This document shows, piece after piece, positions 3,110-24,368 of a DNA stretch of 25,260 bases. Source of the DNA: a virus; the IMG/VR virus record IMGVR_UViG_3300023296_001674; one strand, written 5' to 3'. The stretch's first letter is position 1. Each line of letters begins with the position of its first letter. Made by a program: the position numbers and the translations under genes. The notes under the pieces were generated by a model, which saw only the letters and a program-made list of their open reading frames with translations, ran no database searches and was not told the DNA's origin.

Positions 3110-3394
3110 GAGCAAACGAGATCGAATACAGTGTTAACGCGGAACGAGACTGCTAGGAACACTTAAAATATACCTAATATGGGCGCGTTGTGGATGGATT
3201 TCCTTTTGTGGAATGATAAAAGCAATGGTAGGAAGCAAAGCGACCTACTAGGGAAAGCGTTATATGCTTTCCTGATAAGTTATTTTGTATGGAAGTGCCA
3301 TTAAAGCAGAACAATTGGTTTGGCGACCAAGCACCTTCGGGGCATAAAATCTGCTACTACTATACTATTTTAATCATAACTAAGTGTCACAAAA

Positions 3395-3464
3395 TATTGT
3401 ATGGTGTAGTGGTAACACGCTGCCTTTATCGGCGGAGCCGTGGGTTCGAGTCCTACTATGATAT
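3395..3464 (+). tRNA. tRNA-like element (AU-rich acceptor, D and T arms fold; anticodon loop irregular; no CCA), possible pseudogene
   Basis: Acceptor TATTGTA/TATGATA; D stem GTGT/ACAC; T arm GTGGG-TTCGAGT-CCTAC. Anticodon stem CTGCC/GGCGG leaves only a 6-nt loop. Confidence 0.3.
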
Positions 3465-3565
3465 TTGGATTACGTTCAGTGTGCACACCGAACGCCACAA
3501 ATTATCTGTTATTATCGCGATAGTGATAGATAATGTTGGGTCACTTAGTTATGATTAAAGTTTTT

Positions 3566-5915: not shown

Positions 5916-5991
5916 GCCGTATTAGTGACACTGGCTAACACGCCTGTTTTGTAATCAGGAAAATGGGGATCGATACCTCAATATGGCACCA
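5916..5991 (+). tRNA. tRNA-Thr (anticodon UGU), CCA encoded; T loop ATCGATA
   Basis: Acceptor GCCGTAT/ATATGGC; anticodon stem CCTGT/TCAGG, loop TTTGTAA; T arm TGGGG-ATCGATA-CCTCA. Confidence 0.55.
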
Positions 5992-6854: not shown

Positions 6855-6911
6855 GGCATATTTTTCCTTGTTATAAATAACTATGGCGGTAGATCAATCC
6901 TTGTGTCTTTA

Positions 6912-6937
6912 GTGATAAGTGCTTCAACACTTGTCAC
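6912..6937. promoter_or_regulatory. perfect 10-bp hairpin (GTGATAAGTG-CTTCAA-CACTTGTCAC) in the upstream region of the minus-strand HNH gene
   Basis: Inverted repeat with a single G·U pair; function unknown (operator, processing or homing-related site). Confidence 0.3.
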
Positions 6938-6967
6938 GCCGCTACTACTATTTATAACTTATACTAA

Positions 6968-7061
6968 GTCGGATTTCCCTAACTGGTGTGGGTAGAATCC
7001 ATAATATGCACTGGGTGATCCTTATGTGCTGCACGTGGTTCGATTCCACGATCCGGCTCCA
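6968..7061 (+). tRNA. tRNA-like, 94 nt (class-II-like length), CCA encoded; anticodon arm not resolved
   Basis: Acceptor GTCGGAT/ATCCGGC; 3-bp D stem CCC/GGG; T arm CGTGG-TTCGATT-CCACG; T73, CCA. Confidence 0.3.
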
Positions 7062-7103
7062 ATTAATTTTGTTCAATTAAATTCGAATCACTGATTGAAC
7101 AAT

Positions 7104-7199
7104 TGCTCATCCGGCGGGTTACATGAGCCACGCCATAACGGATTGAAATGAGCCATGCCGTTGGGTATGGATATCAGGAGTTTCGGTGATGAGCTACCA
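7104..7199 (+). pseudogene. tRNA-like remnant with 3' …ATGAGCT-A-CCA; internal 12-nt direct repeat (ATGAGCCACGCC / ATGAGCCATGCC)
   Basis: 5' TGCTCAT pairs with the 3' end, but no canonical T loop or anticodon arm. Confidence 0.2.
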
Positions 7200-7307
7200 A
7201 TTAACTAAGGTGAACGGTAGTAACCTTTAATGTGCGGCAGTGGTGCAATTCCCTAACTGATTGAGTTCGACTCTCATTCGGGTCTAGATGACAAAACATT
7301 ATAATAT

Positions 7308-7391
7308 GGACGGTGATGTTAAGACTATGGCTGGGCCAGCGCAAGCCTCTTAAGCTTGTATAAAAGAGTTCGATTCTCTCACCGTCTTCCA
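7308..7391 (+). tRNA. aberrant Lys-like tRNA (anticodon loop CTCTTAA = CUU) with ~9 extra nt in the D region; CCA encoded
   Basis: Acceptor GGACGGT/ACCGTCT; anticodon stem CAAGC/GCTTG; T arm (A)AGAG-TTCGATT-CTCT(C). 27 nt between acceptor and anticodon stem. Confidence 0.35.
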
Positions 7392-7457
7392 ATTATGCAG
7401 GCCATAGATGTTCCCTTTGTCCATTATTGGGAACTGTGGATGAAAACAAAAACGAAA

Positions 7458-7527
7458 GCAGGGTTAATGGACTGTGTGTAAGTTTTGTGATTAAAAGGGA
7501 TGGTGCAAATCCAATTCCCCTGCGCCA
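7458..7527 (+). pseudogene. degenerate tRNA-like element sharing the GCAGGG…CCCTGC-G-CCA acceptor of the Phe-type genes
   Basis: Acceptor and CCA present; T arm weak (GGG/CCA); no resolvable anticodon arm. Confidence 0.25.
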
Positions 7528-7531
7528 AATT

Positions 7532-7604
7532 TGTTTGATCGTCTTTGGAATACAAGATACCGTTGTCGAAGGCGGAGACGTTGGTTCGAATCCAACTTGA
7601 ACAC
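7532..7604 (+). pseudogene. Asp-like tRNA pseudogene (loop GTCGAA region), no CCA
   Basis: Acceptor TGTTTGA/TTGAACA (two G·U pairs); D GTCT/AGAT; T arm GTTGG-TTCGAAT-CCAAC. Anticodon stem CCGTT/GGCGG leaves only a 6-nt loop. Confidence 0.35.
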
Positions 7605-7693
7605 TTATTGTTAGTAATGATTTTATGTACATAAATGATTTGCTAGGCGAAAGCCAATAGTTTGCTGGTTCTATTTCTTAAAAATCCTCTTAT

Positions 7694-7770
7694 GGTAGGT
7701 GTAGTGTTAACGGTTAGCACGTCAGACTGTGACTCTGAAAGTGCCGGTTCAAATCCGGTCATTTACCCCA
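7694..7770 (+). tRNA. tRNA-His (anticodon GUG) with encoded G-1 and C73; CCA encoded
   Basis: G-1, acceptor GTAGGTG/CATTTAC; D GTGT/GCAC; anticodon stem TCAGA/TCTGA, loop CTGTGAC; T arm GCCGG-TTCAAAT-CCGGT; C73-CCA. Confidence 0.8.
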
Positions 7771-9080: not shown

Positions 9081-9166
9081 TCGGATATAGGAGAATTGGT
9101 AGACCCAGAAGATTGTTAATCTTCCGCAGCAATGCATTCCAGGTTCGAGTCCTGGTATCCGAGCCA
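9081..9166 (+). tRNA. class-II (long variable arm) tRNA with Leu-like D loop (GAATTGGTAGAC), G73 and anticodon GUU (Asn codons); CCA encoded
   Basis: Acceptor TCGGATA/TATCCGA perfect; anticodon stem GAAGA/TCTTC perfect, loop TTGTTAA; variable arm 14 nt (GCA-GCAA-TGC); T arm CCAGG-TTCGAGT-CCTGG; G73-CCA. Confidence 0.55.
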
Positions 9167-13764: not shown

Positions 13765-13843
13765 TTGACTAGTAGCTCAGTGGTTTAGAGCGGGGAGTTC
13801 TAAACTCTCGACAGCGTTGGTTCAAATCCAACCTGGTCAACCA
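13765..13843 (+). tRNA. putative amber-suppressor tRNA (anticodon CUA, reads UAG); CCA encoded
   Basis: Acceptor TGACTAG/CTGGTCA; D GCTC-AGTGGTTTA-GAGC; anticodon stem GGGAG/CTCTC, loop TTCTAAA (U33, C34-U35-A36, A37); 7-nt variable region; T arm GTTGG-TTCAAAT-CCAAC; A73-CCA. Confidence 0.6.
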
Positions 13844-14825: not shown

Positions 14826-14900
14826 GCCCCTATAGTACAATGGTTAATATGATCGCCCGGTAAGCGATAGATGAAAGTTCGATTCTTTCTAGAGGCACCA
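14826..14900 (+). tRNA. tRNA-Thr (anticodon GGU; C at position 33), CCA encoded
   Basis: Acceptor GCCCCTA/TAGAGGC (one C·A mismatch); anticodon stem ATCGC/GCGAT perfect, loop CCGGTAA; T arm GAAAG-TTCGATT-CTTTC. Confidence 0.65.
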
Positions 14901-14912
14901 ATAAATAACAAT

Positions 14913-15728
14913 ATGACAATGACACCACCAAATATTATAATTTATAGTAATCCACGTTCAGGAACCACATTGCTTCATCATACATTATTATTATTTTTTC
15001 AAGAATATTATGGTGATTATTATTGTGATTTACATGAATTCTTTACAACATCGCATATGACAACGAGACATCGTAATAATATAGATGAAATAAATTCCAT
15101 TACGTATGAACAGAATAACAATATATTAATAAAGACATACAAGCCAGCAGATACCGAAAGCAATGACTTCGAAGAAGAATTGCAACAACGAATTTCACAA
15201 TGGAACAATTGTGTAATAGCTGATAACAATCAGCCGTTTATAACAAAAATATTTCACAAAAATTTGATTGATCACAATTTTTCAAATACAATATTTGATC
15301 ATTCATTAAATTTGGTTCTTGTAAGAAAAAACGTACAAGATATGATATTGAGTTTTATAATATCAAATAGCAACAATAACTGGTTTTATTATGAAAATGA
15401 AAATATAGAAACATTGCGCGGAAGTTTGATTGGTGATATAGATATAATACGCATTCATTTGGAACGCAATAAATTATTTCTTGAAAATATACCCAATATA
15501 CCCAATGCATTAATCATTGATTATGATGAACTTAATGACTATGAATATTTTTATCAAGTTATTATAGATATGGGCATTGTTGATATTCGTGAATTGCATG
15601 CCATGGAAATATTTGATAACATACAGCTAAAACGTAAAATTATTCCAACACCATATACAATGGATCGTATAGATTATTTTAAGAATGCCAATGAAATAAA
15701 AACACTCATGGATGAATATTGTTCTTGA
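14913..15728 (+). CDS. sulfotransferase-family-like protein (PAPS-binding 5'-PSB-like motif NPRSGTT)
   Basis: Start moved to the Met at 14913 (MTMTPPNIIIYSNPRSGTTLLHH…); the ORF-track start at 14871 overlaps the tRNA. TGA stop. Confidence 0.55.
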   Translation: MTMTPPNIIIYSNPRSGTTLLHHTLLLFFQEYYGDYYCDLHEFFTTSHMTTRHRNNIDEINSITYEQNNNILIKTYKPADTESNDFEEELQQRISQWNNCVIADNNQPFITKIFHKNLIDHNFSNTIFDHSLNLVLVRKNVQDMILSFIISNSNNNWFYYENENIETLRGSLIGDIDIIRIHLERNKLFLENIPNIPNALIIDYDELNDYEYFYQVIIDMGIVDIRELHAMEIFDNIQLKRKIIPTPYTMDRIDYFKNANEIKTLMDEYCS

Positions 15729-15778: not shown

Positions 15779-16024
15779 ATGGATGATTATGATAAAATGT
15801 TTGATAATATGATAGAAGGATTCAAATCTGGTAGATTTAATGCTAAGGATTGGAATTTTTGTATTGATATAAATCTTGCTAATAAAAAAGATGTTTATGA
15901 TGGTTATATCATGGGAACTGGTGCTGAACAATGCGCTGGTTGTAAATCGTTTTCGACAAGGGAAGAACTTGTTGATTTGTTTACCAAAGTAGGCGCAAGG
16001 TTTATAATGAATGGAGTTGGTTGA
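15779..16024 (+). CDS. hypothetical protein (81 aa)
   Basis: SD TGGAGA upstream; overlaps the next start. Confidence 0.5.
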   Translation: MDDYDKMFDNMIEGFKSGRFNAKDWNFCIDINLANKKDVYDGYIMGTGAEQCAGCKSFSTREELVDLFTKVGARFIMNGVG

Positions 16025-16329
16025 TGGCACCTCATAGAGTACGACAATTGCATCGACCACGAAAAAAACCATATGGATTTGAAATATATGAAGATTCAAC
16101 ACCACTTAGTCTTGCCAATATTAGAAAGTGGTGCAAAAGTGTTATTGGTAATCTCGGCGAGCCACGCGGATGGTCATTAAAAGATGATACCATTTATATT
16201 AGAGGTCAAAAACGTGGTGGAAAACCCATGATTTATTTTATGGAAGAAAAACACGCTTTAGCATTTAAAAAAATGATAAACACAACAAATGTTGATGATA
16301 TACTTCTTTTTAAATTTATGTATTATTAA
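16021..16329 (+). CDS. hypothetical protein, tandem paralog A (RQLHRPRKKPYGFEIYED…MIYFMEEKHALAFKKM)
   Basis: Shares N- and C-terminal motifs with the ORF at 16329. Confidence 0.55.
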   Translation: MMAPHRVRQLHRPRKKPYGFEIYEDSTPLSLANIRKWCKSVIGNLGEPRGWSLKDDTIYIRGQKRGGKPMIYFMEEKHALAFKKMINTTNVDDILLFKFMYY

Positions 16330-16586
16330 TGGCAAACCGAATAAGACAAATGGTTCGCCCTAGAATAATGCCGTATGCGTTTAAAATTTATAGTGATTTT
16401 ATGGATCGACGTAATGTACATAAAGATCACAACAAACAAATGGCAATATATGGATGGGTTAAAGACACGTTTGGTGAATCTAACTATGATGTATGGACTT
16501 CGCGGCGTGAACCCACACGATATGCAACAATGATATATTTTATGGATGATACATCCGCCATGGCATTTAAGCTGCAATGGATGTAA
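16329..16586 (+). CDS. hypothetical protein, tandem paralog B (RQMVRPRIMPYAFKIYSD…MIYFMDDTSAMAFKLQWM)
   Basis: Start overlaps the stop of paralog A (TAATG). Confidence 0.55.
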   Translation: MANRIRQMVRPRIMPYAFKIYSDFMDRRNVHKDHNKQMAIYGWVKDTFGESNYDVWTSRREPTRYATMIYFMDDTSAMAFKLQWM

Positions 16587-16603
16587 ATAAAGCGTGATGA
16601 TCG

Positions 16604-16641
16604 GGTATCTAGTTCGATTTTTATCGGGATACCAAAATTTT
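16604..16641 (+). terminator. rho-independent terminator containing a T-loop-like sequence
   Basis: GGTATC…GATACC stem (loop includes GTTCGATT) followed by AAAATTTTT; just after the stop of CDS 16329-16586. Confidence 0.55.
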
Positions 16642-16799
16642 TAACCCAAATAATAGGAGTTCGACATGAAAACGGGATAACTTAGCGGCGGTTTGCCGCA
16701 CACATGGATTACAGCTAAAATCAAGAAATTTAAACTTTAATTAAGGAGATACACAATGAGTAATGAAAACTCAAGGGTATCGCAGAAAGTTTAGACAGT

Positions 16800-17129
16800 A
16801 TGGATAAAGCTGCGCTAAAAACACTTTCCGATACTCTTAATCGGATATGGGGAATCCCTGAACCAAGGGTCTATTATCCGAATAAACATTTCGAAAAACC
16901 TGAACCAGTTGAACAGACAATGTTCTCAGTGTTCATTCTTGACGCTGGTCCTAAACGGATTAACGTCATTAAAGAAATCAGATCAATCTTAGGATTGACC
17001 CTGAAAGAATCAAAGGATTTTGTTGATAATATAGACAAGAGCCTTGTTCAAGAAGACTTAGAAAAATGGGATGCAGATGCATTAGCCGAAACATTATCAA
17101 ATGTTGGAGCAACTGTTGAAGTTTCTTAA
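16800..17129 (+). CDS. ribosomal protein bL12 (L7/L12) C-terminal-domain homolog with a non-canonical N-terminus
   Basis: C-terminal 70 aa FSVFILDAGPKRINVIKEIRSILGLTLKESKDFVDNIDKSLVQEDLEKWDADALAETLSNVGATVEVS align by eye with bacterial bL12 CTD (FDVIL…KVAVIK.VR..TGLGLKEAKDLVE…EAG..VEVK). Confidence 0.65.
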   Translation: MDKAALKTLSDTLNRIWGIPEPRVYYPNKHFEKPEPVEQTMFSVFILDAGPKRINVIKEIRSILGLTLKESKDFVDNIDKSLVQEDLEKWDADALAETLSNVGATVEVS

Positions 17130-17171
17130 AATATACCAGTTTGGTGTCTGGGGTATAAACAAAACACCACC

Positions 17172-17225
17172 TTCCTCTTTCGTATAGTGGTTATGATCTT
17201 TGTGTCGCAATCAGAGGACGATTTT
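17172..17225 (+). pseudogene. truncated paralog of the tRNA at 17331 (5' two-thirds; T arm replaced by TTTTTTG)
   Basis: TCGTATAGTGGTTATGATCTTTGTGTCGCAATCAGAGGACG matches 17338-17378 with a few substitutions; preceded by the hairpin GGTGT…ACACC. Confidence 0.3.
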
Positions 17226-17241
17226 TTGTGGAGGCAATTAT

Positions 17242-17325
17242 GCGCGTAGCCGGTATGTTGGTACTACCACTGGTCTTCCAAACCAGCGCGAAAGCATTGG
17301 GGTTTGATTCCCCCTACCCGCTCCA
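17242..17325 (+). tRNA. tRNA-Gly (anticodon UCC) with an 11-nt variable arm (84 nt); Gly-family acceptor; CCA encoded
   Basis: Acceptor GCGCGTA/TACCCGC-T-CCA; D GGTA/TACC; anticodon stem CTGGT/ACCAG perfect, loop CTTCCAA; variable CGCGAAAGCAT; T arm (T)GGGG-TTTGATT-CCCC(C). Confidence 0.6.
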
Positions 17326-17330
17326 ATCAA

Positions 17331-17405
17331 GCCCCATTCGTATAGTGGTCATTATCTCTGTGTCGTACTCAGAGGACGGCAGTTCGATTCCGCCATGGGG
17401 CACCA
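17331..17405 (+). tRNA. tRNA-Thr-like (anticodon CGU if the loop is 7 nt; loop region could be 9 nt), CCA encoded
   Basis: Acceptor GCCCCAT/ATGGGGC perfect; D GTAT/(T)TAT; anticodon stem CTCTG/CAGAG with TGTCGTACT between; T arm GGCAG-TTCGATT-CCGCC. Confidence 0.55.
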
Positions 17406-17471
17406 ATTACATATTGCATTATATCCTATTTTTTTATATAATAAATAAAAAGAACAATAGGACACGAAACT

Positions 17472-18023
17472 ATGCGCGGAACATTAGAAGTGATTACTGG
17501 CCCAATGTTTGCCGGTAAGACGACAGAAATAATAAAACGATTATTATGGTCAAAACATCAAGGTAAATCAACAATTATATACAAACCAGCAATGGATGAT
17601 AGATATAGTGAAACTGAAATAGTTACACATACCAAATTTTCATACGAAGCAACATCCATCATTGATAGTTTTAATATCAATCCAACATACGATCATTATT
17701 TTTTTGATGAAATACAGTTTCATGATAAAAATATTGTTCCATCTATAACTAAATTATTAGATGAAGGAAAAAATGTAACGGTGGCTGGTTTAGACGCTGA
17801 TTATAAAGGTGTTGCATTTGCGAACACTGCTACGTTAATGGCGATGGCAGACGAAGTATTTAAGATAAAATCGCATTGTAGTTTATGTGGCAAAGATGCT
17901 GCTAAAACATTTAAAACTGGTTCGACAAGCGACCAGCGCATAGAATTGGGTGAAAATGACTTATACCGTGCCAGATGTAATGAGCATTGGTATGTATCAG
18001 GAACTGACGATAGTTTTTCTTGA
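17472..18023 (+). CDS. tdk: thymidine kinase
   Basis: N-terminal P-loop ITGPMFAGKTTEIIKR and C-terminal Cys cluster CSLCGKDA…RCNEHW typical of type II thymidine kinases; TGA stop. Confidence 0.9.
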   Translation: MRGTLEVITGPMFAGKTTEIIKRLLWSKHQGKSTIIYKPAMDDRYSETEIVTHTKFSYEATSIIDSFNINPTYDHYFFDEIQFHDKNIVPSITKLLDEGKNVTVAGLDADYKGVAFANTATLMAMADEVFKIKSHCSLCGKDAAKTFKTGSTSDQRIELGENDLYRARCNEHWYVSGTDDSFS

Positions 18024-18079: not shown

Positions 18080-19063
18080 ATGGATAACAACAATTACAAC
18101 GATTTAAAACAGCGTTTGGTTAATGCAGGATGTTTCGAACGAGCGACATCGCATTATGTTCTACGTATTACAGCAATTCTAATTGCTTATGTGGGAGCAT
18201 ATTTTGTTCTGCTTACACAGCCACTAGGATTGGTTGCAGTGGGTGCATTGATTATTGCAGCCTTTGCCAGCGTTCAGGCTGGTTTCATTTCACACGATGC
18301 TGGTGATGGCGGTATTACATCAAATAAGATGCTATCTACCGGTATGCGACAATTCTTTTTATCGTTTGTTACTGGTGTGAGTAGTTCATATTTTCATGCA
18401 CTACATAAAGTGCATCACAAAACAATGTTTAAAGGATCATCGAAATCATCCGACACAGTTTCAGAAAATGAATACGAAGGCAAATGGTTGAAGAAATTAG
18501 TTTCACGTGATGGTTTGTTATTCATGGTAACGATGGTTACATTACGGGGATTCACATTCAAATTTGAAAGTGTAAAATATATGCTTAAACACGCCAATAA
18601 AACCGCCGCAGATCAACTGTTGGTGGGATTGCACGTTGTAGCATGGCTGATCGTTCCAATGATGATTATTGGACCAGTAGCCATTCTAAACTATGCATTA
18701 TTGACGTTGTTGATTGGACCTTATATCGGAACGGTATTGGTTATTAATCATGCCGGTATGGTAACAGCAAACCGACAAATGCATTTGCCTAAATTTGAAC
18801 GCGTAGTAAATACTACACGCAATCTTGGTGACGGCGTTTGGAACAATCTGTTCTTCGGTGGTGTAAACAACCATATTGAACACCATTTGTTTCCGGGTGT
18901 GCCAGTGCCAAATCTAGGTGAAGCTAGAAAGATTACTGAAGCCTTTTGTGAAGAACGTGGTATTAAATACACCAAAGCTTCATATTTCAGCGCATTAATC
19001 GAAGCCAAAGACCATTTCAAGGGTTTGTCTTCACAGAGATTAGTTGCTGAAGCACTCAACTAA
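18080..19063 (+). CDS. membrane fatty-acid desaturase-family protein (three His boxes)
   Basis: HDAGD, HKVHH and HIEHHLFP motifs plus multiple hydrophobic helices; SD TAGGAGA upstream. Confidence 0.8.
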   Translation: MDNNNYNDLKQRLVNAGCFERATSHYVLRITAILIAYVGAYFVLLTQPLGLVAVGALIIAAFASVQAGFISHDAGDGGITSNKMLSTGMRQFFLSFVTGVSSSYFHALHKVHHKTMFKGSSKSSDTVSENEYEGKWLKKLVSRDGLLFMVTMVTLRGFTFKFESVKYMLKHANKTAADQLLVGLHVVAWLIVPMMIIGPVAILNYALLTLLIGPYIGTVLVINHAGMVTANRQMHLPKFERVVNTTRNLGDGVWNNLFFGGVNNHIEHHLFPGVPVPNLGEARKITEAFCEERGIKYTKASYFSALIEAKDHFKGLSSQRLVAEALN

Positions 19064-19073
19064 GGGAAACTAT

Positions 19074-19550
19074 ATGTTTAAATTTAATGTATGTAATTAC
19101 AGTGATTCACTGTATTCAATGGACAACTATACCAAGGCTATTGGTATAGTTGATCCAGATGAAAAAGTAACACCATCAGAAAAATATCATGTTGCACGAT
19201 GCCACGATATAGTAATGCAGGAACACCCTTGGGTGGCTCCCACAATAGACCAGTTTGTCGCAATTATGAATTTTGCAGAAGATTTTACAGACGATGATGT
19301 TGTAATGATTCATTGCTCTGCTGGTATATCACGCAGCACTGCAACTGCCATATTGTTATTAATGTTGCATGGCGCTGACGAAGAAGAAGCATTTAATGCT
19401 GTTGAACAAAATAGACCAAACATGAATCCAAACACATTGATTCTTCGCTTTGCTGATGAATTATTAGGAATGGATGGCGGTTTGATTGAATATCATAAAC
19501 AATGGATGGCGAAACGGGTTATTAAACCAGTTAGTTTCGCAGGACAATAA
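19074..19550 (+). CDS. Cys-based (CX5R) protein phosphatase, dual-specificity/tyrosine-phosphatase-like
   Basis: Active-site signature VMIHCSAGISRSTA. Start chosen at the Met at 19074, which has SD AAGGGAAA; the ORF-track start at 19044 overlaps the upstream gene. Confidence 0.65.
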   Translation: MFKFNVCNYSDSLYSMDNYTKAIGIVDPDEKVTPSEKYHVARCHDIVMQEHPWVAPTIDQFVAIMNFAEDFTDDDVVMIHCSAGISRSTATAILLLMLHGADEEEAFNAVEQNRPNMNPNTLILRFADELLGMDGGLIEYHKQWMAKRVIKPVSFAGQ

Positions 19551-20279: not shown

Positions 20280-20328
20280 TAAAATATAGACAAACACTTC
20301 GTTTGGGTGTATAAATATAGAATAATAT

Positions 20329-20436
20329 TTCCAAGTAGCTCAGATGGTAGAGCGTCTGACTGTGGAACAGATGAGCCTAAAGCTTTGAAGTTCAAATTTA
20401 ATCAGAATGTCGGCGGTTCGATCCCGTCCTTGGAAG
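20329..20436 (+). tRNA. aberrant tRNA-like gene, 108 nt, no CCA: canonical 5' half and T arm separated by a ~39-nt insertion after the anticodon arm
   Basis: Acceptor TTCCAAG/CTTGGAA perfect; D GCTC-AGATGGTA-GAGC; anticodon-like stem TCTGA/(A)CAGA with loop CTGTGGA (GUG); insert contains TTGAA-G-TTCAA; T arm GGCGG-TTCGATC-CCGTC. Confidence 0.35.
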
Positions 20437-20439
20437 CAA

Positions 20440-20575
20440 ATAAAAGTTTTAGGTCGTTCAATAAGCCATGTTTAGCGGCATGGTTAGGACAAGCGGGTAT
20501 AACCGCTAAATGGTATGCTGCAATCGGGGTTAACACTTATTGCAACGAGGTGAAAATCCACCCATAGAAATCAAT
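20440..20575 (+). ncRNA. highly structured spacer (candidate small RNA): hairpins CCATG-TTTAGCGG-CATGG and GCGG-GTATAA-CCGC
   Basis: Dense local complementarity; ORF 20307-20567 is discounted because it overlaps tRNA-like sequence. Confidence 0.25.
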
Positions 20576-20667
20576 GCCTCGGTAGCTCAGAAAAGCAACG
20601 TAAGTTGTAGTGTAGTAGCAGGTGACTGAACCTCACCGTGTCGGTAGTTCGAATCTATCCTGGGGCA
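20576..20667 (+). tRNA. aberrant tRNA-like gene, 92 nt, no CCA: ~20 extra nt in the D region
   Basis: Acceptor GCCTCGG/CTGGGGC; 5' D stem GCTC with no partner; anticodon-like stem GGTGA/TCACC with loop CTGAACC (GAA); T arm GGTAG-TTCGAAT-CTATC. Confidence 0.35.
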
Positions 20668-23712: not shown

Positions 23713-23740
23713 TAATTAATGTAACAAAAGGAGAAAGACA

Positions 23741-24368
23741 ATGCTTAGAGGAACACGTTTGATGACTGGTGCGGAAGCATCTACATACACGAACACTGTT
23801 GACACACTACGGAGGTGTCTTCATCGATAATAATGTCGAAGAAGTTATAGTTCCGTCGTTATGGGAACAGCAGACATTTATTGATAAAGCAGGAAGTGAA
23901 ATTGTAAATCAGATGTGGGCATTTGAAGATAAGAAAAATCGCCCCGTATGTTTGATACCAGAAGTTACTGGTGTTATACAAGAAATGTGGCGCGATGATT
24001 GGAGTAAATCCAAACCAAAGCCATATTCTATTTTTTATGTGAATCGTTGTTATCGTTATGAACGACCACAGAAGGGTAGATATAGAGAATTCACACAAAT
24101 CGGATTAGAAATTCTTGGTGATACATCAGGGAATGATTACGATATGGCAATTAATTTATTGCAAAAGTGTCTCGATTGTTTTACTATAGATTATAAACTT
24201 ACAGAAACGGTACAACGCGGTTTGGCGTATTATGTTGATGATGGGTTTGAAGTCGAATGTGAGAAGTTGGGCGCACAGAAGCAAATTGCTGGTGGTGGTC
24301 GATACAATGAAGGTATTGGTTGGGCTATCGGCGTTGATAGATTAATATTGGGGATTGATGATGACTAG
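23741..24368 (+). CDS. miniaturised histidyl-tRNA-synthetase-like protein (class II motifs 2 and 3) requiring a +1 frameshift near 23804-23812, or a frameshifted pseudogene
   Basis: Frame A (ATG 23741, SD AAAGGAGAAAG) encodes MLRGTRLMTGAEASTYTNTVDTL (compare HisRS …[23 protein letters not shown]) and stops at 23828. Frame B (+1, open from 23769) encodes …YGGVF…MWAFEDKKNRPVCLIPEVTG…CYRYERPQKGRYREFTQIG…IAGGGRYNEGIGWAIGVDRL. No anticodon-binding domain. Confidence 0.55.

Follow-up and report, generated by a model that had tools for sequence, protein, structure and literature searches.

Surveys take phage-encoded ribosomal proteins as evidence of host-ribosome remodelling, and the locus described here raises the question of what such a gene encodes when its reading frame is looked at as a whole. 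It lies in a 25,260-nucleotide (nt) stretch of viral DNA, IMG/VR record IMGVR_UViG_3300023296_001674 (the window, in what follows). There, an open reading frame (ORF) on the + strand at 16800..17129 had been predicted, from the letters alone, to end in the C-terminal domain (CTD) of ribosomal protein bL12 (L7/L12). The ORF is real, 109 amino acids (aa) long, and encodes a bL12 homolog that has the CTD, the hinge and one anchor helix, the second, and is missing the first. On balance, we propose that it descends from a full-length phage bL12 gene by a frameshift near the 5' end and, if expressed, probably re-initiates at 16800 to give a half-anchored factor-binding protein. A clean Pfam match can hide a broken ribosome anchor, and the presence of the domain therefore does not establish that the stalk is replaced. 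The frame arrangement is not an assembly error, since 18,461 of 18,461 nt of the window were identical to an independently assembled Logan contig from SRR7528202; the exact 109-aa protein is carried on five contigs.

The factor-binding domain

The similarity of the C-terminal part of the protein to bL12 is far beyond chance. Its single Pfam match was to Ribosomal_L12 (PF00542; E = 6.6e-19, 68.4 bits with a gathering score of 25.9), residues 42-108 covering profile positions 1-66 of 67, and a sequence search of the PDB returned bL12 chains alone down to E ~1e-2, the best being that of D. radiodurans (6e-12). Over the CTD the identity to E. coli bL12 was 42% (30/71 residues). Every one of the 12 invariant columns of a 34-sequence bL12 alignment was kept in the 109-aa ORF, and near-invariant positions were altered in places, for example TEF to TMF and GLGLKEAK to GLTLKESK.

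An AlphaFold2 (AF2) model of the 109-aa protein, built on 34 homologs, has one N-terminal helix (residues 3-17), a low-confidence hinge (27-39) and then a beta-alpha-alpha-beta-alpha-beta domain, with strands at 42-48, 81-87 and 105-108 and helices at 53-64, 68-76 and 89-101. This predicted domain fitted the crystal structure of the E. coli L7/L12 CTD (1ctf) with a root-mean-square deviation (rmsd) of 1.1 A over 68 columns and a target TM-score of 0.92, and with the AF2 model as query all nine Foldseek matches at E<=0.001 were bL12. Next in the Foldseek ranking came ClpS, the N-end-rule adaptor, which has its alpha/beta topology in common with the bL12 CTD; it was rejected as the family of this protein at 9-13% identity, E of at least 6e-3 and rmsd 2.5-4 A, without a sequence-profile match. 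The original prediction had named a profile search and a structural superposition as its checks, and in both of them the last ~70 residues proved to be a bL12 CTD, with the residues that contact translation factors kept.

Those residues deserve a closer account. The EF-G-contact residues of E. coli bL12 are V66-V68, K70, L80 and E82 (PMC5887453), and they correspond here to I54, N55, V56, K58, L68 and E70. Beside them the equivalents of I69 (I57), R73 (R61), K81 and K84 (K72) are also kept. As the CTD is intact, with the bL12 fold and a conserved contact surface on helix 4 and helix 5, the product is predicted to bind EF-G and other translational GTPases.

The N-terminus and the frame upstream

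In bL12, residues 1-37 fold into a hairpin of two helices, and a pair of such hairpins makes up the four-helix bundle seated on L10; the hinge (38-49) and the CTD (50-120) follow (PMC3299993). The N-terminal 40 residues of the phage protein had been called unrelated to this dimerisation and L10-binding domain, and this view did not survive comparison. PDB alignments matched the query from residue 5-6 onward with bL12 from residue 19-20 onward, and in a HMMER search single-domain bL12s (~120-126 aa) aligned their own residues 14-24 at query residues 1-9. In a multiple alignment, MDKAALKTLSDTLNRIWGIPEP fell on the second helix of the N-terminal domain (NTD) and the (W/F)G(V/I) motif, so that residues 1-22 correspond to this part of PDB and metagenomic bL12s. 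Residues 1-22 scored 5.6 bits with an NTD-only profile of 32 canonical bL12s, from which the 109-aa protein and its nearest relative had been excluded, a score that was reached by 4/2000 shuffles. The ORF holds one NTD helix, the AF2 helix at 3-17, and is without the two-helix hairpin for dimerisation and L10 binding. Its score with TIGR00855, the full-length equivalog, was 58.2 bits, below the cut-off of 84.4, and this, together with the lack of a match to PF16320, the Pfam NTD model, is consistent with the first anchor helix being missing from the ORF.

These results bear on a model proposed for virus-encoded ribosomal proteins, in which the 109-aa product would take the place of host bL12 as a regular subunit of the ribosomal stalk. 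The model can draw on the CTD and the one NTD helix that are conserved here, on the detection of one phage bL12-domain protein in 70S fractions (Mizuno et al. 2019, PMC6375957) and on the proposal that huge phages sustain elongation with rpL7/L12 (Al-Shayeb et al. 2020, PMC7162821). Set against it are the need for both helices of the hairpin in dimerisation and L10 binding (PMC3299993), where the ORF has one, the outcome with TIGR00855 and PF16320, and the finding of Mizuno et al. that the tagged phage protein could not be affinity-purified with ribosomes. We consider this model improbable. The 109-aa product would be unlikely to dimerise normally on L10 and, if active, would be a soluble factor-binding domain and not a regular stalk subunit.

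A candidate for the missing helix is found directly upstream of ATG 16800 and in frame with it. Read upstream, the frame of the main ORF gives IKEIHNE, two stop codons and then KLKGIAESLDSMDKAAL, so that the segment ahead of the start codon is E-stop-stop-KLKGIAESLDS-M (Table 1). ATG 16756 lies in a different frame, where it opens a 12-codon ORF, and no Shine-Dalgarno (SD) core precedes ATG 16800. A -1 join of the two frames produces a 124-aa protein (MSNEKLKGIAESLDSMDKAAL...) which aligns gap-free to the nearest homolog, P0060 (MPSERVMKLFQELTGMSRDEANLL...), with W-x-IPEP at residues 32-37 in both. The frame-corrected protein also aligns with TIGR00855 end to end (1-123 with 1-124 of 125) at 60.8 bits, still below 84.4.

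Table 1. Coordinates of the bL12 gene, its parts and the features of its leader
Feature	Position	Strand	Remarks
AGGAG and 4-codon ORF MKTG-stop (ORF 16666-16680)	16655..16680	+	Present
GC hairpin GCGGC-GGTTT-GCCGC	16685-16699	+	Present; function unsupported
Shine-Dalgarno AAGGAGA	16743..16749	+	6 nt upstream of ATG 16756; among the best SDs of the window
12-codon ORF MSNENSRVSQKV-stop, read as displaced bL12 start	16756..16794	+	Stop TAG 16792-16794, 5 nt before ATG 16800
Two stop codons (TAA, TGA) in the main-ORF frame	16761..16766	+	Separate the main ORF from the upstream start region
In-frame non-ORF segment KLKGIAESLDS, resembling bL12 NTD helix alpha-1	16767..16799	+	Profile gain, AF2
109-aa ORF, bL12 homolog	16800..17129	+	Stop codon 17127-17129; profile and PDB matches
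Residues 1-22, second bL12 NTD helix and WGI motif	16800..16865	+	Alignments, NTD profile
Residues 23-41, proline-rich flexible hinge	16866..16922	+	Predicted local distance difference test (pLDDT) in AF2 <50 at 27-39; aligns to bL12 hinges
Residues 42-109, bL12 CTD (beta-alpha-alpha-beta-alpha-beta), factor-binding helices	16923..17126	+	PF00542, 1ctf fit

The upstream segment was scored with several profiles. With one of 45 full-length bL12s, the 11 in-frame residues added 6.4 bits, a gain matched by 8 of 4000 natural 11-mers drawn from the six-frame translation of the window itself; MSNE joined to the same 11 residues gained 9.1 bits, which 4 of 4000 natural peptides matched. A 12-sequence bL12 profile gave a gain that was reached by 1/1000 shuffles. 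In a scan of all -1 junctions the score was the same wherever the shift came among codons 4 to 8, and it fell by 2-4 bits once IAE was gone; because of this drop we place the helix signal in IAESLDS (16779-16799) and the break at ~16765-16781. When AF2 was given the pure in-frame translation (16767-17126), it predicted helices at 2-11 and 14-28 with a block pLDDT of 84-85. The mean pLDDT rose from 69.1 to 78.3 with the in-frame extension, and full-length E. coli L7 (1rqu_A) aligned over 120 of 120 columns of the extended model.

Since the first helix is encoded in frame directly upstream of ATG 16800, the second of the two mini-ORFs in the leader is best read as the displaced original start, and 16756 is probably the ancestral start of the bL12 gene. 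The original prediction was right that this mini-ORF exists and follows an SD, and less so in treating it as an independent leader peptide, its ATG sitting where a full-length bL12 would be expected to begin; it may still couple translation, as had been suggested. Use of SD sequences in the window is relevant here. AGGAG is strand-biased (17 on + and 4 on -), an SD core stands at -9 to -13 in ~22 of the 38 genes, and intergenic pairs of a strong SD with an ATG open real genes everywhere in the window except at 16666, 16756, 7189 and 23741.

We propose that the ancestor was a full-length phage bL12 resembling the two intact relatives found in a phage context, and that a frame break at ~16765-16781 parted the start region from the frame of helix 1. 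A run within this interval, GAAAAC, is a natural candidate site for the loss of 1 nt. The strong SD would still recruit ribosomes, which would read through the 12-codon remnant and end at its TAG, and re-initiation 5 nt downstream, at an ATG without an SD of its own, would then yield the 109-aa protein. If the truncated protein is made, it would represent a natural separation of the factor-binding domain of bL12 from its L10 anchor.

Several observations weigh against this proposal. Support for the upstream helix comes from a short segment and is statistical in kind: with an independent 32-sequence NTD profile the corrected N-terminus was reached by 69/2000 controls and the 11-mer by itself by 249/2000, and an artificial 14-residue join of the mini-ORF frame scored high as well, being reached by 22/4000. 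Frame correction gains just 2.6 bits on TIGR00855, PF16320 matched neither the real nor the frame-corrected N-terminus, and the helix that AF2 places in the extension is steered by the aligned homologs. The lack of an SD core before 16800 is not exceptional, as ~16 of the 38 genes in the window are without one. Finally, no form of the junction, with an A-run of 3-6 bases, was matched in IMG/VR, JGI metagenomes or GTDB genomes.

Another explanation for two frames that together make a bL12 is programmed -1 frameshifting, with initiation at 16756 and a slip between 16765 and 16791 leading to a 124-aa bL12, possibly in addition to the 109-aa form; a junction peptide such as SNEK-LKGIAESLDSMDK would be predicted. 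The frames overlap by 27 nt, a shift after any of codons 4-8 would make an equally good full-length bL12, the GAAAAC run is inside the overlap, and the region folds slightly better than shuffles (z = -2.2). Yet no X XXY YYZ slippery heptamer is present in the 16765-16791 overlap, and GAAAAC falls in a predicted loop, without the stimulatory structure that would be expected to begin 5-9 nt further on. A run of four A's is too short for transcriptional slippage. Moreover, a HisRS-like gene elsewhere in the window, described below, needs the opposite (+1) shift, which fits random indels better than a common programmed mechanism. We therefore give programmed frameshifting only a slim chance.

In the original prediction the protein is a lone CTD behind an unrelated N-terminus, and two independent leader peptides together with a hairpin would regulate its translation. 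The features it listed are all present where it placed them. The homology of the N-terminus to the bL12 NTD, the coincidence of the second mini-ORF with the expected gene start, and a hairpin that is not significant and matches no RNA family make it the least probable account of the locus.

A variant of the frameshifted-derivative proposal, which we rate as very improbable, is that the frame break is itself functional, re-initiation (possibly with low -1 slippage) providing a free, anchor-less factor-binding domain that acts in trans, whether or not a little of the full-length form is made as well. If true, the free domain might titrate translational GTPases or, as a decoy, draw off host factors that dock at the bL12 stalk, and phages would thereby have a new means of interfering with the ribosomal stalk. 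Defence nucleases captured by the stalk exist, and PDB 8phj (Cami1 on 70S) was among the structural matches.

Phage relatives and known bL12 systems

Searched exhaustively with HMMER, 1.84 billion representatives returned 3600 proteins at E<=0.001, none of them, apart from the protein itself, with more than 50% identity, and no near-identical phage record was found. The sole member of the same subfamily is P0060, with its near-identical sister P0185, at 41-49% identity depending on the method of alignment; both were found on contigs of 1.3-1.5 kb. P0060 is an intact protein of 126 aa and is encoded beside tRNA-like remnants and small ORFs without family matches. The remnants lie upstream, at 1-310 of its contig (L002), with a GGTTCGAATCC T-loop motif at ~285-297, and are not called by ARAGORN; the surroundings suggest that P0060, too, sits in a phage tRNA island. 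The second relative from a phage context is a bL12 homolog of the 735-kb phage LR756501 (L003 1348..1719), an intact protein of 123 aa with a full NTD, MENIKEFAEKLSNLTVLECYQLAKIMKEEYGIS. Its first helix, FAEKLSNL, resembles IAESLDSM, which lies out of the ORF in our window. Thus both phage-context relatives are intact full-length proteins. Most of the "phage" matches in a tblastn search with the protein were bL12 genes of hosts, in records that are contaminated or bacterial.

Papers of 2019 and 2020 had already described bL12 genes in phages, and the present one is a very divergent further example. bL12 is the second commonest viral ribosomal protein, is often ~100 aa long or embedded in larger proteins, and has been acquired many times independently (Mizuno et al. 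2019, PMC6375957); the virus-encoded bL12-domain family has conserved elongation-factor-interaction residues (PMC6375957). For huge phages, rpL7/L12 is listed among the translation genes (Al-Shayeb et al. 2020, PMC7162821). With these, as represented by LR756501, the present gene shares a very large genome rich in tRNA and translation genes and a single-domain protein of bL12 size. The two-helix NTD is intact in LR756501 and P0060, whereas the copy here is frame-broken at its 5' end. Identity to the LR756501 homolog was 33% over the CTD, which suggests separate acquisitions or a long divergence.

The bL12 proteins of cultivated phages, such as Ralstonia phage RSB3 (98 aa) and Salmonella phage FSL SP-076 (418 aa), have PF00542 and the factor-contact residues in common with the protein described here and are often ~100 aa long or an embedded domain, that is, without the canonical L10 anchor. 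Their phages are <80 kb. In the present case one can see why the anchor is incomplete: there is a frame break in what appears to be a formerly full-length gene. The relationship to the cultivated-phage bL12-domain proteins is not close; no tblastn match to them was obtained at E<=1e-3, and PHROG matches to the protein (E ~1e-4) extended over two CTD helices alone. In comparison with bacterial bL12 (RplL; PF16320 and PF00542; TIGR00855), the fold and family of the CTD, the EF-G-contact residues, the flexible hinge and the second NTD helix are shared; the differences are that here the first NTD helix is outside the ORF, PF16320 does not match, the score is below the equivalog cut-off and the gene is carried by a phage. 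What is new at this locus is the probable 5' frame break, with the second mini-ORF most likely a displaced start, and an N-terminus that is half an anchor.

A separate observation concerns domain number. The top-scoring metagenomic matches (P0003-P0059) are proteins of 240-1066 aa with 2-7 tandem bL12 CTDs, P0003 having 7 copies in 593 aa, and anchor-less arrays of the factor-binding domain appear to be widespread.

Leader, neighbours and decay in the island

The contig carrying the gene is 570,750 bp long, and the window has a GC content of 36%. Among the neighbours are a thymidine kinase, a fatty-acid desaturase, a dual-specificity phosphatase, a sulfotransferase-like protein, a HisRS-like fragment and a protein with a weak match to an exonuclease subunit. 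Neighbours match phrog_2141 (6.8e-97), phrog_23051 (3e-34) and the thymidine kinase phrog, and homologs of a 302-aa neighbour occur in 735 phage records, mostly of large myoviruses of Proteobacteria. The PF00542 domain sits in a bona fide phage genome. ARAGORN called 27 tRNA genes in the window, all on the + strand, and Rfam added further tRNA matches; together with the HisRS-like fragment and the possible exonuclease subunit, this agrees with the translation-focused module that had been described around the gene. Unlike the bacterial gene, this one is not in an rplJ-rplL operon: upstream it has two tandem paralogs and downstream the thymidine kinase, no rplJ (L10) was found among the neighbours in the window, and in the leader no Rfam family, the L10 leader included, reached E<1.

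The leader between the paralogs and the gene had been given a regulatory role in the original prediction. Its hairpin exists and occurs once in the window, yet at least one such match (with one mismatch allowed) was seen in 9/100 shuffles and no Rfam family corresponds to it, so that a regulatory role for it is unsupported. As a terminator or a recurrent motif it was rejected, being a single copy without a T-run and matched by those 9/100 shuffles, and no terminator was called on the + strand at this position. The MKTG mini-ORF does stand behind an AGGAG as had been claimed, and nothing beyond the SD supports a function for it. Its region (16655..16680) has an 8-nt repeat, ATGAAAAC, in common with 16763-16770; this was the only internal repeat in the leader and is probably due to chance. 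An Rfam search of the leader at E<=10, which covered the L10 leader and riboswitches, returned noise alone (16577-16758, best E 1.6-4.5). The whole leader and 16730-16830 fold slightly better than shuffles (z -2.25 and -2.17), with ATG 16800 in a loop and ATG 16756 partly paired in the predicted fold, which is weak evidence, and a sigma-70-like match at 16693-16721 is no more than chance would give.

The bL12 gene is not the sole one in the window to be broken. The HisRS-like gene, of ~200 aa, comprises the class II core only (region 23728-24368, body ORF 23769..24368). An AAGGAGA followed by ATG 23741 encodes MLRGTRLMTGAEAS..., which contains the canonical HisRS N-terminal motif (MLRGTR) and is out of frame with the body ORF. 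A +1 correction near 23815 moves the start of the tRNA-synt_His alignment from profile position 14 to 8 and raises the score from 53.4 to 56.0 bits. This is the second frame-broken translation gene in the window. With the broken HisRS-like gene and degenerate copies of tRNAs, the island looks like a zone of gain and decay.

Other elements in this part of the window were noted. Directly downstream of the bL12 gene (~17170-17228) is a degenerate copy of the neighbouring tRNA-Thr that has no T-arm, and at 17241-17322 there is a long-arm tRNA-like element with an Rfam tRNA-Sec score of 38.4 bits (gathering score 47), not called by ARAGORN. A 96-aa ORF at 17228..17518 overlaps the tRNA-like elements and tRNA-Thr 17331-17405 and is probably spurious. 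Further upstream, every ORF in a stretch of ~840 nt (6855-7694) is shorter than 80 aa, and within it a strong SD (AGGAG 7176) and ATG 7189 open a 13-codon ORF only; this may be another decayed gene.

Such debris is the basis of a second explanation for the bL12 ORF, namely that the frameshift killed a full-length gene and that the 109 codons are a non-functional relic, simply not yet degraded and giving no useful protein. The HisRS-like gene, the degenerate tRNA-Thr, the tRNA-like element and the SD with its 13-codon ORF in the 840-nt stretch all speak for it, and relatives with which selection might be demonstrated are lacking. We think it unlikely, while giving it more weight than the other alternatives, as an ORF that has stayed open for 109 codons at 36% GC, with its 12 invariant columns and its factor-contact residues kept, is not what a relic would lead one to expect, and re-initiation is favoured by the short distance, 5 nt, between the remnant's stop and an in-frame ATG that occupies a conserved Met/Leu position. 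If the protein is not made, the bL12 gene would, along with the HisRS-like gene and its broken frame and the degenerate copies of tRNAs, suggest that the translation island is a zone where genes are gained and decay.

Some further features of the window are recorded here. The tandem paralogs just upstream of the bL12 leader (16024-16586) are ORFs of 101 and 85 aa with overlapping stops, related at 33% identity (BLASTP E = 3e-11), and neither has a Pfam or PHROG match. The sulfotransferase-like protein (14871-15728; a weak Pfam match), the fatty-acid desaturase (18080-19063) and the dual-specificity phosphatase (19074-19550) are unusual for a phage. A tRNA with the anticodon CTA (an amber suppressor, labelled 'Pyl' by ARAGORN) is encoded at 13766-13843. 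Read-through of the TAG at 16792-16794 by such a tRNA, joining the two ORFs of the bL12 locus, was ruled out, for the frames differ and read-through meets TAA at 16816-16818; and because TAG is the stop of 7 of the 38 called genes, there is no sign of TAG recoding in the window. Two tRNA calls were odd, at 3394-3465 and 9081-9166: one with an undetermined two-base anticodon ('ta'), and one a tRNA-Asn of 86 nt. Three Rfam tRNA matches were not called by ARAGORN (20329-20436, 20576-20667 and 5916-5988). An 86-aa ORF with a GTG start at 20307..20567 contains the first of these and may not be a gene, and two of the three are long (108 and 92 nt), which suggests that they carry inserts or introns.

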